NCBI RefSeq assembly: GCF_022846255.1
Contig: NZ_AP025682.1
DNA: 64,000 nt
Origin: Escherichia coli
Lineage (GTDB): Bacteria; Pseudomonadota; Gammaproteobacteria; Enterobacterales; Enterobacteriaceae
Strand: one strand, 5' to 3'
The number at the start of each line of letters is the position of its first letter. The stretch's first letter is position 1. Made by a program: the position numbers and the translations under genes. Positions 1-46,481 of the stretch are shown here, piece after piece. The notes under the pieces were generated by a model that was given only the letters and a program-made list of their open reading frames with translations, was not told where the DNA came from and made no database searches.

Positions 1-1
1 G

Positions 2-229
2 GCGATAAGCGCGATGTATGAGTTAATCGAGTGGTGGGCAGCGCTGGCAATGGGCCAGGGCGCAGATGATTTTCTCGGTACTCAAGGCGACCCGTGGGAT
101 ACGCAATCCGATATGTTCTGCGCACTACTGGGCGCATTAACGACGGTGATATTCCTCGCCCGCTTTCATTGCCGCCAGCTACGGCGCTTTGGCTTAATCA
201 CCAGAGCGCCGGAAGCGATTACCCCTTAA
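2..229 (+). CDS. C-terminal part of a membrane-type protein, open to the window start; possibly YjdF-like inner membrane protein
   Basis: ORF track 14..229, frame open back to position 2; hydrophobic stretches; stop TAA 227..229 overlaps the melA stop (226..228) on the opposite strand; identity not verified. Confidence 0.45.
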   Translation, partial: AISAMYELIEWWAALAMGQGADDFLGTQGDPWDTQSDMFCALLGALTTVIFLARFHCRQLRRFGLITRAPEAITP

Positions 230-1581
230 CGGTGCAACCAGCCTGGCAGCCAGTCGCCGTGGGCGGCAATCAGGTCGTCAACAAGAGCATATATTTCGTC
301 AATGCCCAGCACGGCGGCAGTATGCGGGTCCATCATCGCGGCGTGGTAAACACGGTCGCGGTTTTCCGTAAGAATGGCTTCGGTCAGCAGCGTCTGTACG
401 TTGATGTTGGTTTGCATCAGAGCGGCCAGATGCGAAGGTAGCGTACCGACTTTGGTCGGCTGAATGCCATTAGCATCAACCAGACAGGCTACTTCCACGC
501 AACATCCTTGTGGCAGGTTATCAATCAATCCATCGTTACGGACGTTGCCGTAAATCACACTCGGCTCGCCAGTCCAGATAGCGTTCATGATTGTGCTGGC
601 ATATTCCCGTGACGGTTTAATATCAATCCGGGAGGCGTTCTTATACTCCTCCAGCTCTTTATGCCAGTTCGCCAGCTGCTCGACGCAGCGTTTCGGGTAC
701 TCATCCAGCGGTACTTTATAACGCTCAATCAAATCCTCACGACCTGGCTTAATAAACCACGGCGTGTACTCAGCAAAATGTTCTGACGATTCCGTGACGA
801 AGTAGCCCAGCTTTTTGAACATTTCGTAGCGCACAATATTCTGGCAGCGAGTATTGCCATGAATATTCGGCTTCGGTGCCTGCCCTGCTTCATAAGCCGC
901 CAGCAGTTCCGGGTAGAGATTCACGTAACTGCCGTCGGCGGTTTTGCGCTCCAGTTCCAGGTAAAACGCCATATGGTTGATACCTGCGCAACGGTAACGC
1001 AGCGTAGCCGGATCGATATTGAGGTCACGCGCCAGCTCTTCCGCCGTTCCCTGCACCGAATGGCACAGCCCTACCTGCTTGATATGCGGATAGCGGGCAT
1101 ACATCGCCCAGGTATTCATCGCCATTGGGTTAACGTAGTTGAGCATGGTGGCATCGGGGCAGACTTCCGTCATGTCCTCGCAAATTTGCCACAGGTGCGG
1201 AATGGTACGTAGCGCGCGCATAATACCGCCCGGCCCCAACGTATCGGCAATGGTTTGTTCCAGACCATGCCGCTTACAGACCTCGAAATCAGTCACCGTG
1301 CAAGGTTCATAACCGCCAATCTGAAATGCCACCACCACAAAATCAGCATCCTGTAAGGCTTCTTTCTGTTGGGTGTGGCAGGTGATTTTGCCGCTGGCCC
1401 CTGCTGAATCCATCAGCTTACGCACCACAATGTGCGACTCTTCCAGGCGGGTGGGATCAATGTCCATCAGGGCAATATGCGCCGTTTTCAGCGCCTCGCG
1501 ATGGAACACATCACCAAGAATATTTTTAACGAAAATCGTCGAACCAGCGCCGATAAATGTAATTTTAGGTGCAGACATCAT
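226..1581 (-). CDS. melA: alpha-galactosidase (melibiase), GH4 family
   Basis: ORF track 451 aa; translation recognised as E. coli MelA; divergent from an AraC-type regulator as in the mel locus. Confidence 0.9.
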   Translation of the reverse strand: MMSAPKITFIGAGSTIFVKNILGDVFHREALKTAHIALMDIDPTRLEESHIVVRKLMDSAGASGKITCHTQQKEALQDADFVVVAFQIGGYEPCTVTDFEVCKRHGLEQTIADTLGPGGIMRALRTIPHLWQICEDMTEVCPDATMLNYVNPMAMNTWAMYARYPHIKQVGLCHSVQGTAEELARDLNIDPATLRYRCAGINHMAFYLELERKTADGSYVNLYPELLAAYEAGQAPKPNIHGNTRCQNIVRYEMFKKLGYFVTESSEHFAEYTPWFIKPGREDLIERYKVPLDEYPKRCVEQLANWHKELEEYKNASRIDIKPSREYASTIMNAIWTGEPSVIYGNVRNDGLIDNLPQGCCVEVACLVDANGIQPTKVGTLPSHLAALMQTNINVQTLLTEAILTENRDRVYHAAMMDPHTAAVLGIDEIYALVDDLIAAHGDWLPGWLHR

Positions 1582-1863
1582 GCAGATCTCCTGGCTTGCT
1601 TGAATGACTTCATCATGGCAGGCGATATCGCAGAAAACCTCCGGTTTCCCGGTTGAGCATTCCCAAAAACTCAGATCCTAAGTGGCACATCAATAGATCT
1701 GAGTTTATGGGAATAAATTACCTGAAAAGCTGAATAATCGACCCCAGTCTTCTCATCCGCTCTCCTCGCACCTCCAGGGAGAGAAATAAAACCGTGCGCC
1801 TGTTCGCAGTCATCCTCCCTCACTCCTGCCATAATTCTGATATTCCAGGAAAGAGAGTCATCC
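1582..1863. promoter_or_regulatory. melR / melA divergent promoter region with repeated MelR-type operator-like sequences
   Basis: Intergenic between divergent melA and melR; related ~18-nt elements in both orientations (about 1631..1653, 1661..1678, 1697..1712); SD-like AGGAG just upstream of the melA start. Confidence 0.5.
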
Positions 1864-2772
1864 ATGAATACAGATACGTTTATGTGCAGCAGCGACGAAA
1901 AGCAGACCCGTAGCCCACTGTCGCTGTATTCAGAATACCAGCGGATGGAAATTGAGTTTCGCGCACCGCATATCATGCCCACCAGCCACTGGCATGGTCA
2001 GGTCGAAGTGAATGTGCCTTTCGATGGCGATGTGGAATACCTGATCAACAATGAAAAAGTGAATATCAATCAGGGTCATATCACGCTGTTCTGGGCCTGT
2101 ACACCGCACCAACTAACAGATACCGGAACCTGTCAGAGCATGGCGATTTTTAATCTGCCGATGCATCTGTTTCTCTCCTGGCCGCTGGATAAAGACCTGA
2201 TTAACCACGTTACTCACGGCATGGTGATCAAATCACTGGCGACACAGCAACTTAGCCCGTTTGAAGTGCGCCGCTGGCAGCAGGAATTAAACAGTCCGAA
2301 CGAGCAAATTCGCCAGCTCGCCATTGATGAAATTGGCCTGATGCTCAAGCGATTTAGCCTCTCTGGCTGGGAACCGATTCTGGTCAATAAAACCTCGCGC
2401 ACACACAAAAACAGCGTCTCGCGCCATGCGCAATTTTATGTCAGCCAGATGCTGGGCTTTATTGCCGAAAACTATGATCAGGCGCTGACCATCAACGATG
2501 TGGCTGAGCACGTCAAACTTAACGCCAACTATGCAATGGGGATATTCCAGCGGGTCATGCAATTGACGATGAAACAGTACATAACCGCGATGCGCATCAA
2601 CCACGTTCGCGCGTTACTGAGCGATACCGATAAAAGTATTCTCGATATTGCCCTGACGGCAGGCTTTCGTTCGAGTAGCCGTTTTTACAGCACGTTCGGC
2701 AAATATGTCGACATGTCGCCGCAACAATACCGCAAACTTAGCCAACAGCGCCGCCAGACGTTTCCCGGCTAA
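1864..2772 (+). CDS. melR: AraC-family melibiose operon activator
   Basis: ORF track 302 aa; C-terminal AraC-type HTH region; position divergent from melA. Confidence 0.9.
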   Translation: MNTDTFMCSSDEKQTRSPLSLYSEYQRMEIEFRAPHIMPTSHWHGQVEVNVPFDGDVEYLINNEKVNINQGHITLFWACTPHQLTDTGTCQSMAIFNLPMHLFLSWPLDKDLINHVTHGMVIKSLATQQLSPFEVRRWQQELNSPNEQIRQLAIDEIGLMLKRFSLSGWEPILVNKTSRTHKNSVSRHAQFYVSQMLGFIAENYDQALTINDVAEHVKLNANYAMGIFQRVMQLTMKQYITAMRINHVRALLSDTDKSILDIALTAGFRSSSRFYSTFGKYVDMSPQQYRKLSQQRRQTFPG

Positions 2773-2967
2773 AGACGATATCAGTATCAGCCAAAAAAAT
2801 AGTTTAGCCGTCGATAATAAGCAGTGAAAATAATTTAAAATAATCACATAACGTGTTGTTTATAAAAATAAATATTTCAAAAATGTTTGTTTTTCACGCG
2901 CTTTACAGCCCGAAAAGGCCGGAAGATACTTGCCCGCAACGAAGATTCCTTCATAACCGGGTAAGCA

Positions 2968-5238
2968 ATGATGAAAGTATTAATTGTTGAAAGCGAGTTT
3001 CTCCATCAAGACACCTGGGTCGGTAACGCCGTTGAGCGTCTGGCAGATGCTTTAAGCCAGCAAAATGTTACCGTGATTAAATCCACCTCCTTTGATGATG
3101 GTTTTGCCATTCTCTCTTCAAACGAAGCCATTGACTGCCTGATGTTCAGCTATCAAATGGAACATCCGGACGAACATCAAAACGTCAGACAATTGATCGG
3201 TAAGCTTCATGAGCGCCAACAAAACGTGCCGGTCTTCCTGTTGGGCGATCGGGAAAAAGCCCTCGCCGCAATGGACCGGGATCTGCTGGAGCTTGTCGAT
3301 GAATTCGCCTGGATTCTGGAAGATACTGCCGACTTTATCGCCGGACGCGCCGTTGCCGCGATGACCCGCTACCGCCAGCAGCTGTTGCCGCCACTGTTCA
3401 GCGCGCTGATGAAATATAGCGACATCCATGAATATTCCTGGGCAGCGCCAGGCCACCAGGGCGGCGTTGGTTTTACTAAAACACCCGCCGGACGTTTCTA
3501 CCATGACTACTATGGTGAAAATCTGTTCCGCACCGACATGGGCATCGAACGCACTTCCCTCGGTTCTTTGCTTGACCATACTGGCGCATTTGGCGAAAGC
3601 GAAAAATATGCCGCACGCGTATTTGGTGCCGATCGCTCCTGGTCGGTAGTCGTCGGTACTTCCGGCTCTAACCGCACCATCATGCAGGCTTGCATGACCG
3701 ATAACGATGTCGTGGTCGTTGACCGTAACTGCCATAAATCCATCGAACAAGGCTTGATGCTGACAGGCGCGAAACCGGTCTACATGGTGCCAAGCCGCAA
3801 CCGCTACGGCATTATCGGGCCAATCTATCCGCAGGAAATGCAACCTGAAACCTTGCAGAAGAAAATCAGTGAAAGCCCGCTGACCAAAGACAAAGCCGGG
3901 CAAAAACCGTCTTACTGCGTGGTGACCAACTGCACCTATGACGGCGTGTGTTATAACGCTAGAGAAGCACAGGATCTGCTGGAAAAAACCTCCGATCGTC
4001 TGCACTTTGACGAAGCCTGGTACGGCTATGCACGTTTCAACCCGATCTATGCCGATCACTATGCCATGCGCGGCGAACCTGGCGATCACAACGGTCCTAC
4101 CGTTTTCGCCACCCACTCCACCCACAAACTGCTGAATGCGCTGTCCCAGGCCTCTTATATTCATGTACGTGAAGGTCGTGGGGCGATTAACTTCTCCCGC
4201 TTCAACCAGGCCTACATGATGCATGCCACCACCTCCCCGCTGTATGCCATCTGCGCATCCAACGACGTGGCGGTGTCGATGATGGACGGCAACAGCGGCC
4301 TGTCACTGACCCAGGAAGTGATCGACGAAGCGGTTGATTTCCGTCAGGCGATGGCGCGGCTATATAAAGAGTTCACCGCTGACGGTAGCTGGTTCTTCAA
4401 ACCGTGGAACAAAGAAGTCGTCACCGACCCACAAACCGGCAAAACCTATGACTTTGCTGACGCACCAACCAAACTGCTGACCACCGTTCAGGACTGCTGG
4501 GTCATGCATCCGGGCGAAAGCTGGCACGGCTTCAAAGATATTCCGGATAACTGGAGTATGCTCGACCCAATTAAAGTCAGCATCCTTGCTCCGGGAATGG
4601 GTGAAGATGGTGAACTGGAAGAAACCGGTGTTCCGGCGGCGCTGGTCACTGCCTGGCTTGGTCGCCACGGCATTGTGCCTACCCGCACCACTGACTTCCA
4701 AATTATGTTCCTGTTCTCTATGGGCGTAACCCGTGGGAAATGGGGGACTCTGGTTAACACCCTTTGCTCCTTCAAACGCCACTATGACGCCAACACACCG
4801 CTGGCGCAGGTGATGCCGGAACTTGTTGAACAATATCCTGACACTTACGCGAACATGGGGATTCACGATCTGGGTGACACCATGTTTGCCTGGCTGAAAG
4901 AAAACAACCCTGGCGCACGGTTGAACGAAGCCTATTCCGGCCTGCCGGTGGCGGAAATCACCCCGCGTGAAGCGTACAACGCGATTGTCGACAACAATGT
5001 CGAACTGGTATCCATTGAAAACCTGCCAGGACGCATCGCGGCAAACTCAGTTATCCCGTATCCGCCAGGAATCCCGATGCTGCTGTCTGGTGAAAACTTC
5101 GGCGATAAAAACAGTCCGCAAGTAAGTTATTTACGCTCGCTGCAATCCTGGGACCATCATTTCCCTGGATTTGAACACGAAACAGAAGGGACAGAAATTA
5201 TTGATGGTATTTACCACGTTATGTGTGTGAAAGCGTAA
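2968..5238 (+). CDS. adiA: biodegradative (acid-inducible) arginine decarboxylase
   Basis: ORF track 756 aa; recognised as AdiA (PLP-dependent Orn/Lys/Arg decarboxylase fold); the start may be the second ATG at 2971. Confidence 0.9.
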   Translation: MMKVLIVESEFLHQDTWVGNAVERLADALSQQNVTVIKSTSFDDGFAILSSNEAIDCLMFSYQMEHPDEHQNVRQLIGKLHERQQNVPVFLLGDREKALAAMDRDLLELVDEFAWILEDTADFIAGRAVAAMTRYRQQLLPPLFSALMKYSDIHEYSWAAPGHQGGVGFTKTPAGRFYHDYYGENLFRTDMGIERTSLGSLLDHTGAFGESEKYAARVFGADRSWSVVVGTSGSNRTIMQACMTDNDVVVVDRNCHKSIEQGLMLTGAKPVYMVPSRNRYGIIGPIYPQEMQPETLQKKISESPLTKDKAGQKPSYCVVTNCTYDGVCYNAREAQDLLEKTSDRLHFDEAWYGYARFNPIYADHYAMRGEPGDHNGPTVFATHSTHKLLNALSQASYIHVREGRGAINFSRFNQAYMMHATTSPLYAICASNDVAVSMMDGNSGLSLTQEVIDEAVDFRQAMARLYKEFTADGSWFFKPWNKEVVTDPQTGKTYDFADAPTKLLTTVQDCWVMHPGESWHGFKDIPDNWSMLDPIKVSILAPGMGEDGELEETGVPAALVTAWLGRHGIVPTRTTDFQIMFLFSMGVTRGKWGTLVNTLCSFKRHYDANTPLAQVMPELVEQYPDTYANMGIHDLGDTMFAWLKENNPGARLNEAYSGLPVAEITPREAYNAIVDNNVELVSIENLPGRIAANSVIPYPPGIPMLLSGENFGDKNSPQVSYLRSLQSWDHHFPGFEHETEGTEIIDGIYHVMCVKA

Positions 5239-45658: not shown

Positions 45659-45671
45659 TACAGTCCTTTCT

Positions 45672-45699
45672 ACAGCCTCCTTTCGGAGGCTGTTTTTTT
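45672..45699 (+). terminator. fdhF intrinsic terminator
   Basis: acagcctcc-tttc-ggaggctgt followed by a T-run. Confidence 0.8.
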
Positions 45700-45751
45700 A
45701 TCCATTCGAACTCTTTATACTGGTTACTCCCTACCCAATCGTATTATCAAA

Positions 45752-46441
45752 ATGAAAAAAATTATCGCATTGATGTTGTTTTTGACATTCTTTGCCCACG
45801 CGAACGACTCCGAGCCTGGCAGCCAGTATTTAAAGGCAGCAGAGGCCGGAGACCGACGCGCACAATATTTTCTTGCCGACAGCTGGTTTAGCTCCGGCGA
45901 TTTGAGCAAAGCCGAATATTGGGCACAGAAAGCCGCCGACAGCGGTGATGCCGATGCCTGCGCGCTGTTGGCGCAGATCAAAATCACCAATCCGGTCAGT
46001 CTGGACTATCCACAAGCAAAAGTTCTTGCAGAGAAAGCGGCGCAAGCGGGCAGTAAAGAAGGTGAAGTAACGCTGGCGCATATTCTGGTAAATACTCAAG
46101 CGGGTAAACCGGATTATCCAAAGGCAATTTCGCTGTTAGAAAACGCCTCGGAAGATCTGGAGAACGACTCTGCCGTCGATGCCCAAATGCTGCTTGGTTT
46201 GATTTACGCCAACGGCGTGGGCATTAAGGCCGACGATGACAAGGCAACCTGGTATTTCAAACGCAGCTCTGCGATTTCCCGAACCGGTTATTCCGAGTAC
46301 TGGGCGGGAATGATGTTCTTAAACGGTGAAGAAGGTTTTATCGAGAAGAACAAACAAAAGGCGCTGCACTGGTTAAATCTGAGCTGTATGGAAGGGTTTG
46401 ATACCGGGTGTGAAGAGTTTGAAAAATTAACTAACGGTTAA
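45752..46441 (+). CDS. yjcO: Sel1-repeat (TPR-like) periplasmic protein
   Basis: ORF track 229 aa; signal peptide and Sel1-like repeats. Confidence 0.8.
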   Translation: MKKIIALMLFLTFFAHANDSEPGSQYLKAAEAGDRRAQYFLADSWFSSGDLSKAEYWAQKAADSGDADACALLAQIKITNPVSLDYPQAKVLAEKAAQAGSKEGEVTLAHILVNTQAGKPDYPKAISLLENASEDLENDSAVDAQMLLGLIYANGVGIKADDDKATWYFKRSSAISRTGYSEYWAGMMFLNGEEGFIEKNKQKALHWLNLSCMEGFDTGCEEFEKLTNG

Positions 46442-46443
46442 GG

Positions 46444-46481
46444 TAGGCCTGATAAGACGCGGTAAGCGTCGCATCAGGCAT
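46444..46481. repeat. REP element between yjcO and gltP
   Basis: gtaggcctgataagacgcggtaagcgtcgcatcaggca; adjacent GC hairpin gccggg...cccggc at 46491..46510. Confidence 0.7.

Follow-up and report, generated by a model that had tools for sequence, protein, structure and literature searches.

The left end of the window (the whole stretch of DNA that was analysed, 64,000 nt of Escherichia coli contig NZ_AP025682.1, assembly GCF_022846255.1) is very probably a common and old allele of the Escherichia mel locus from which melB has been deleted; in carriers of this allele, melibiose would enter the cell through the lactose permease, LacY, instead of through MelB. The source genome is represented by these 64 kb, and its lacY status and presumed lack of melB or rafB elsewhere are taken from its relatives.

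Absence of melB at this position is an already known, widespread lineage allele. The gene was listed among the functions specifically absent from phylogroup B2 (Touchon et al. 2009, PMC2617782, Table 5), and B2 was later found to be negatively associated with melibiose degradation (Touchon et al. 2020, PMC7314097). The absence is a textbook-level lineage marker and contributes to the metabolic profile that sets B2 strains, a group rich in ExPEC, apart. A trough in the diversity of melB relative to its flanking genes, described below, may be new.

Structure of the yjdF-melA junction

The mel locus of K-12 (a derivative was used for comparison) runs from yjdF on the plus strand through a 138-nt spacer to melB (1,422 nt, minus strand), a 102-nt spacer and melA (minus strand), followed by melR on the plus strand; this layout agrees with the order that a preliminary description of the window had given for K-12, with melB after melA and yjdF convergent. 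In the window, melA (226..1581, minus strand) and a plus-strand frame open from the window edge (2..229) terminate on the same four nucleotides, as that description had noted. Positions 226-229 read TTAA and hold both convergent stop codons, that of the plus-strand frame being TAA at 227-229 and that of melA the complement of 226-228, and the resulting 4-nt overlap of coding sequences recurs in the RefSeq annotation of other genomes.

The convergent frame had been described as a membrane-protein ORF, which is correct, but the gene is already known: the frame forms the 3′ end of yjdF (1..229, plus strand), which encodes a DUF2238 inner-membrane protein, and it covers residues 142-216 of a 216-aa "long" form before running off the left window edge. 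Translated, window positions 2..202 are 98.5% identical to residues 142-208 of K-12 YjdF (tblastn). RefSeq names the same ORF yjdF (651 nt, DUF2238) in A37, UTI89, FDAARGOS_536, and others, and in relatives with the same arrangement the 651-nt yjdF is preceded by fumB. The identity of the ORF rules out a novel membrane-protein gene.

What distinguishes this yjdF is its end. At 203..229 (plus strand) an allele-specific tail of eight codons, RAPEAITP, plus a stop replaces the Gly209 codon and stop of K-12, and the C-terminus accordingly reads ...LITRAPEAITP in the window and ...RRFGLITG, ending at residue 209, in K-12. The 216-aa protein ends in RRFGLITRAPEAIT followed by P or S in the window and in every examined melB-less genome with an intact yjdF. 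The gene is annotated as frameshifted, and thus as a pseudogene, in the B2 genomes CFT073 (L011 8043-8685) and SSGw2 (L005 2448-3090), and is intact in UTI89, A37, and others. In annotation, the melB-less junction is not to be taken for a mistake, and a YjdF of 216 aa counts as a normal allele.

From yjdF codon 209 to the melA stop codon there are 1,665 nt in K-12 and 20 nt in the window, a net loss of 1,645 bp. Gone are the stop codon of yjdF, the spacer between yjdF and melB, melB itself, and the greater part of the spacer between melB and melA; melA, the regulatory region, and melR are unaffected. The same 1,645-bp difference appears in genomes that carry melB, which span 13,645 nt for 12,000 nt of query. 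The 20 nt that remain (206..225) are a spacer remnant. A hairpin in the K-12 melA-melB spacer has as its left arm the same 9 nt with which the remnant begins, GCGCCGGAA (206-214), and this K-12 copy (L002 3958) lies 34 nt from the melA stop; the chance expectation of such a match in a 102-nt spacer is 0.0004. Because these 9 nt match that spacer, the main deletion is placed from the yjdF stop codon into the melB-melA spacer, a block of ~1,622 bp. Beside this block, ~23 further bases next to melA are missing or differ, and positions 215-225, the 11 nt that close the remnant, align only loosely to the K-12 spacer.

The absence of melB, claimed earlier, holds against both the ORF list and a search by translation. 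Stop codons interrupt all three minus-strand frames of 1..225, in line with the stops previously noted on that strand, and tblastn with K-12 MelB, a Na+/melibiose symporter of the GPH family, found no MelB-like coding sequence in the 64-kb window (best E = 0.37, over 13 residues). Together these results rule out that melB lies unrecognized in 1..225 or at another place in the window.

The deletion leaves no spacer and no obvious terminator between the convergent genes, which makes antisense read-through plausible, and transcripts of melA would probably run into yjdF on its antisense strand. A simple scan found no obvious terminator-like site on the melA strand where it crosses yjdF beyond the end of melA, and the site count (5, against 2.4 ± 1.4 in shuffled sequences) was not clearly above that of the shuffles.

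Distribution and age of the melB-less allele

Of 5,426 complete E. coli genomes, 1,264 (~23%) contain an uninterrupted match to a 171-nt probe that spans the junction (window 140-310), and in the others the probe was split between two places; in several complete genomes the match was 100% identical. K-12 melB was found in 4,136 of the 5,426 (76%). The two counts add up to 5,400, compared with 5,401 genomes that gave any probe match, and since the two sets are near-exact complements, melB-less genomes carry essentially no melB at a second site, a possibility that the counts rule out. On plasmids, melB was found in only 2 places.

The archetypal B2 genomes UTI89 and CFT073 both have the order melR-melA-yjdF with the 4-nt overlap. 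A 71-nt string spanning the junction occurs exactly in UTI89, A37, and FDAARGOS_536; over window positions 1-2800, CFT073 is collinear with 0 gaps. The junction is also carried by FUJ80154, assigned to ST648 and phylogroup F by its authors' typing (PMC8694128). Two haplotypes of the junction, GATTACCCC and GATAACCTC, have identical breakpoints; for the GATAACCTC haplotype, the phylogroup is known for FUJ80154 only (F).

The window itself contains no Clermont markers, and its 30-55 kb segment is best matched by ST73-type B2 strains (CFT073, Nissle, and ABU 83972), at only 99.1%. Positions 1-2800 form a mosaic, in which the 3′ end of yjdF is identical to those of UTI89 and A37, melR is identical at synonymous sites to those of FDAARGOS_536 and CMZE087, and melA differs by 13-34 synonymous changes from each of UTI89, A37, FDAARGOS_536, and CMZE087.

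These comparisons bear on the earlier statement that this strain had lost the permease gene, and on the accompanying caveat that the contig might be chimeric or misassembled at the junction. That the deletion is private and recent, or that the contig end is a chimera of assembly, in an isolate that would be melibiose-negative, is extremely improbable. The junction does lie near the edge of the window, and the region has no near-identical counterpart among complete genomes, none of which exceeds ~99.4% identity over the first 2.8 kb; nevertheless, the exact string in three other genomes and the gapless collinearity of CFT073 refute a private event, and a junction that is contiguous in 1,264 independent complete genomes excludes misassembly. 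The melB-less allele was inherited by the source strain, not created in it. Speaking of a loss in this strain is misleading, as the allele is old and widespread: 23% of complete E. coli genomes carry it, B2 reference strains and an ST648 strain of phylogroup F have it, and it extends to other Escherichia species.

The distribution beyond E. coli was surveyed by a scan of one genome per species, which used the C-terminal decapeptide of MelA as a strict degenerate DNA pattern, returned six loci, and covered species other than E. albertii, E. fergusonii, and Salmonella, and strains other than the E. marmotae type strain. Three species representatives, namely E. whittamii, Escherichia sp. E1V33, and "E. 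coli" SCPM-O-B-8794, have the same succession of yjdF, remnant, and melA, and each has substitutions of its own in the remnant. The melA genes of these three differ by 7-8.5% from that of E. coli and by 3-6% from each other. Diverged flanks together with private substitutions in the remnant point to long vertical descent and not to recent transfer. On this sequence evidence, the melB-less allele is old.

A divergent strain classified as E. coli, 19KM2326N (NZ_CP151038.1), whose yjdF is 87% identical to that of K-12, also keeps the junction, with a YjdF that ends in ...RAPEALNL. There, a second deletion (at L024 5560-5900) has joined ~33 nt of the melA 3′ end to the final ~12 nt of melR, with adiA next, which shows that the locus has decayed step by step in this divergent branch of Escherichia.

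Other events at the same locus are of different kinds. Citrobacter sp. MGH106 (L015 385-1075) has convergent yjdF and melA without melB, separated by an unrelated 66-nt spacer with a hairpin-like repeat, and may have lost melB from between these genes independently. In three E. coli genomes (hits H71, H81, and H109), melB is interrupted by insertion sequences (ISEc35, IS1A, and IS1B), which are independent inactivations of the permease in lineages that carry melB. In WP5-S18-ESBL-07 (NZ_AP022159.1; hits H30/H70/H110), only the 3′-terminal 165 nt of melB stand beside yjdF and the next annotated gene is crfC, which suggests a much larger deletion that would have taken melA, melR, the adi genes, and more.

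Maintenance of melA and melR and use of melibiose

Retention of melA and melR, also claimed earlier, is confirmed by intact ORFs of 451 and 302 aa. The alpha-galactosidase (GH4) encoded by melA is 99.6% identical to K-12 MelA over all 451 residues, and the gene has no internal stops and a dN/dS of 0.026 relative to K-12. A divergent regulatory region of 282 nt (1582..1863), of the same length as in K-12, separates it from melR (1864..2772, plus strand), which encodes an AraC-family activator 99.7% identical to K-12 MelR, with one nonsynonymous difference and no internal stops. Downstream of melR lies adiA (2968..5238, plus strand). RefSeq gives melR a length of 933 nt, from an upstream start, in A37, CFT073, and UTI89 (L001 5840-6772, L011 10296-11228, and L012 24474-25406) and of 909 nt in K-12 and in a number of further genomes without melB, which is a difference of annotation.

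Both genes are full-length in 11 of 11 E. coli alleles (the window, eight other melB-less genomes, and two with melB), with dN/dS values relative to K-12 of 0.015-0.067 for melA, at dS up to 0.16, and of 0-0.10 for melR. They are also full-length in the melB-less E. whittamii and SCPM-O-B-8794. To judge by these ratios, melA and melR are under strong purifying selection and have been for a long time without melB. In an alignment of the window, K-12, UTI89, CFT073, and E. whittamii, the inverted repeat AAACTCAGAT...ATCTGAGTTT, which we take to be the MelR/CRP site region, and the melA-proximal part of the regulatory region are conserved. Approximately 60 nt in the middle of this region exist as two deeply different haplotypes, one shared by the window, UTI89, and CFT073, and the other found in K-12, which resembles E. 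whittamii. Constraint on melA and melR without their permease raises an evolutionary question, for which LacY offers a possible reason.

Transport of melibiose by LacY is classical knowledge. In a Biolog screen of UTI89, which carries the same junction as the window, utilization of only two substrates besides lactose, melibiose and methyl-alpha-galactoside, required functional lacY (bioRxiv 10.64898/2025.12.03.691977). The preliminary description had predicted a transport deficiency unless another permease compensates, and it is this proviso that stands, with compensation documented as lacY-dependent melibiose use in UTI89. In melB-less strains, LacY probably substitutes for MelB. Melibiose would enter through LacY, activate MelR, and be split by MelA, and its use would depend on LacY and probably be weaker or conditional rather than absent.

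How effective this route may be can be gauged from routine phenotyping. The standard figure for E. coli is that 75% of strains are melibiose-positive (quoted in PMC11546641), and isolates of E. ruysiae are melibiose-negative in API 20E. Compared as totals and not strain by strain, 75% fermenters and 76% melB-bearing genomes suggest that melB-less strains are often negative in routine tests. In view of these nearly equal figures and the negative E. ruysiae isolates, compensation by LacY may be weak or condition-dependent. Absence of melB probably underlies part of the ~25% of E. coli that score melibiose-negative.

It could be argued instead that melA and melR are functionless leftovers heading to decay, and that melB-less strains do not use alpha-galactosides. 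The deletion of both genes after melB loss in 19KM2326N, the melibiose-negative E. ruysiae, and the closeness of the share of fermenters to that of melB-bearing genomes would all fit this account. It is nonetheless improbable, given that no sampled melB-less E. coli has a truncated melA or melR, that both genes are also full-length in E. whittamii and SCPM-O-B-8794, that dN/dS stays at 0.015-0.10 while dS reaches 0.12-0.16, that the repeat at the presumed MelR site is conserved, and that UTI89 grows on melibiose when lacY is functional. For activity of MelA in a melB-less background, the lacY-dependent growth of UTI89 gives indirect support.

Diversity of melB and comparison with known mel loci

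Where melB is present, it is far more uniform than the genes on either side. Identity to K-12 of at least 99% was found for melB in 4,127 of 4,136 genomes, for yjdF in 1,637 of 5,413, and for melA in 2,875 of 5,399. Eight alleles with melB, picked partly as those most distant from K-12 (L002 2477-3898 and its homologues in L008, L016, and L019-L023), gave nucleotide diversities (pi) of 0.034 for yjdF, 0.007 for melB, 0.000 for the melB-melA spacer, and 0.0175 for melA, and mean dS values of 0.109, 0.024, and 0.068 for yjdF, melB, and melA, respectively. Escherichia sp. MOD1-EC7003, in which melB adjoins melA as it does in Kosakonia, differs from K-12 by a dS of 0.13 in yjdF, 0.015 in melB, and 0.14 in melA.

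One tentative interpretation, which we consider possible but unlikely, is that the deletion arose before E. coli separated from several cryptic lineages of Escherichia and that the melB of most E. coli is a young segment, re-introduced or swept, which spread by recombination into non-B2 backgrounds and into MOD1-EC7003. If true, this would account for the 3-5 times lower diversity of melB relative to both of its neighbors. Put in terms of ancestry, the melB-less state would be the older one in the radiation of E. coli and the cryptic clades, K-12-type melAB would have been re-introduced, or kept in one lineage, and recently spread by recombination, and B2 would never have "lost" melB within E. 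coli, a history that is likewise doubtful. The deletion junction on flanks diverged at species level, in the three other species representatives and in 19KM2326N, speaks for it, as do the fraction of melB genes at or above 99% identity to K-12, far above those of melA and yjdF, the low pi and dS of melB relative to both flanks, and the MOD1-EC7003 melB, at a dS of 0.015 between flanks of ~0.13. However, a selective sweep on a melB that was always present gives the same trough and explains it equally well; within E. coli, the melA alleles of melB-bearing and melB-less genomes are interspersed, and recombination has therefore erased most of the history; and melB adjoins melA in other enterobacteria, here Kosakonia, so melAB is ancestral at a deeper level. 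The detailed analysis comprises eight melB-bearing alleles only, within a sample that lies outside E. albertii, E. fergusonii, the E. marmotae type strain, and Salmonella.

Elsewhere in the window, two further differences were observed. At ~45661-46474 the window is without a 5.5-kb island that is present between fdhF and yjcO in CFT073, Nissle 1917, and ABU 83972 and that carries five ABC-transporter genes (for a substrate-binding protein, two permeases, and two ATPases), and it is also without ~1 kb between yjcO and gltP.

At the mel locus, the B2 reference genomes UTI89 and CFT073 are like the window in the order melR-melA-yjdF, the absence of melB, the 4-nt overlap, and the 216-aa YjdF, whereas the melA of the window is a different mosaic, with 18-34 mismatches in 2.8 kb relative to CFT073 and UTI89. 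The K-12 locus has melR, regulatory region, and melA orthologous to those of the window, with an intergenic length of 282 nt common to both, but it contains 1,645 bp more, made up of the yjdF stop, the 138-nt spacer, melB (1,422 nt), and most of the 102-nt spacer, and its YjdF has 209 aa. Strain 19KM2326N shares with the window the junction of yjdF, remnant, and melA end, but most of its melA and melR are deleted and yjdF is followed by adiA. In O80:H2 E. coli, melR, melA, and melB are all gone, a 70-bp fragment termed "70mel" stands in their place, and melibiose fermentation is affected (PMC11945584). Both that locus and the one described here are natural structural variants of the mel locus; the window is without melB only, and its remnant comes from the operon's own spacer.
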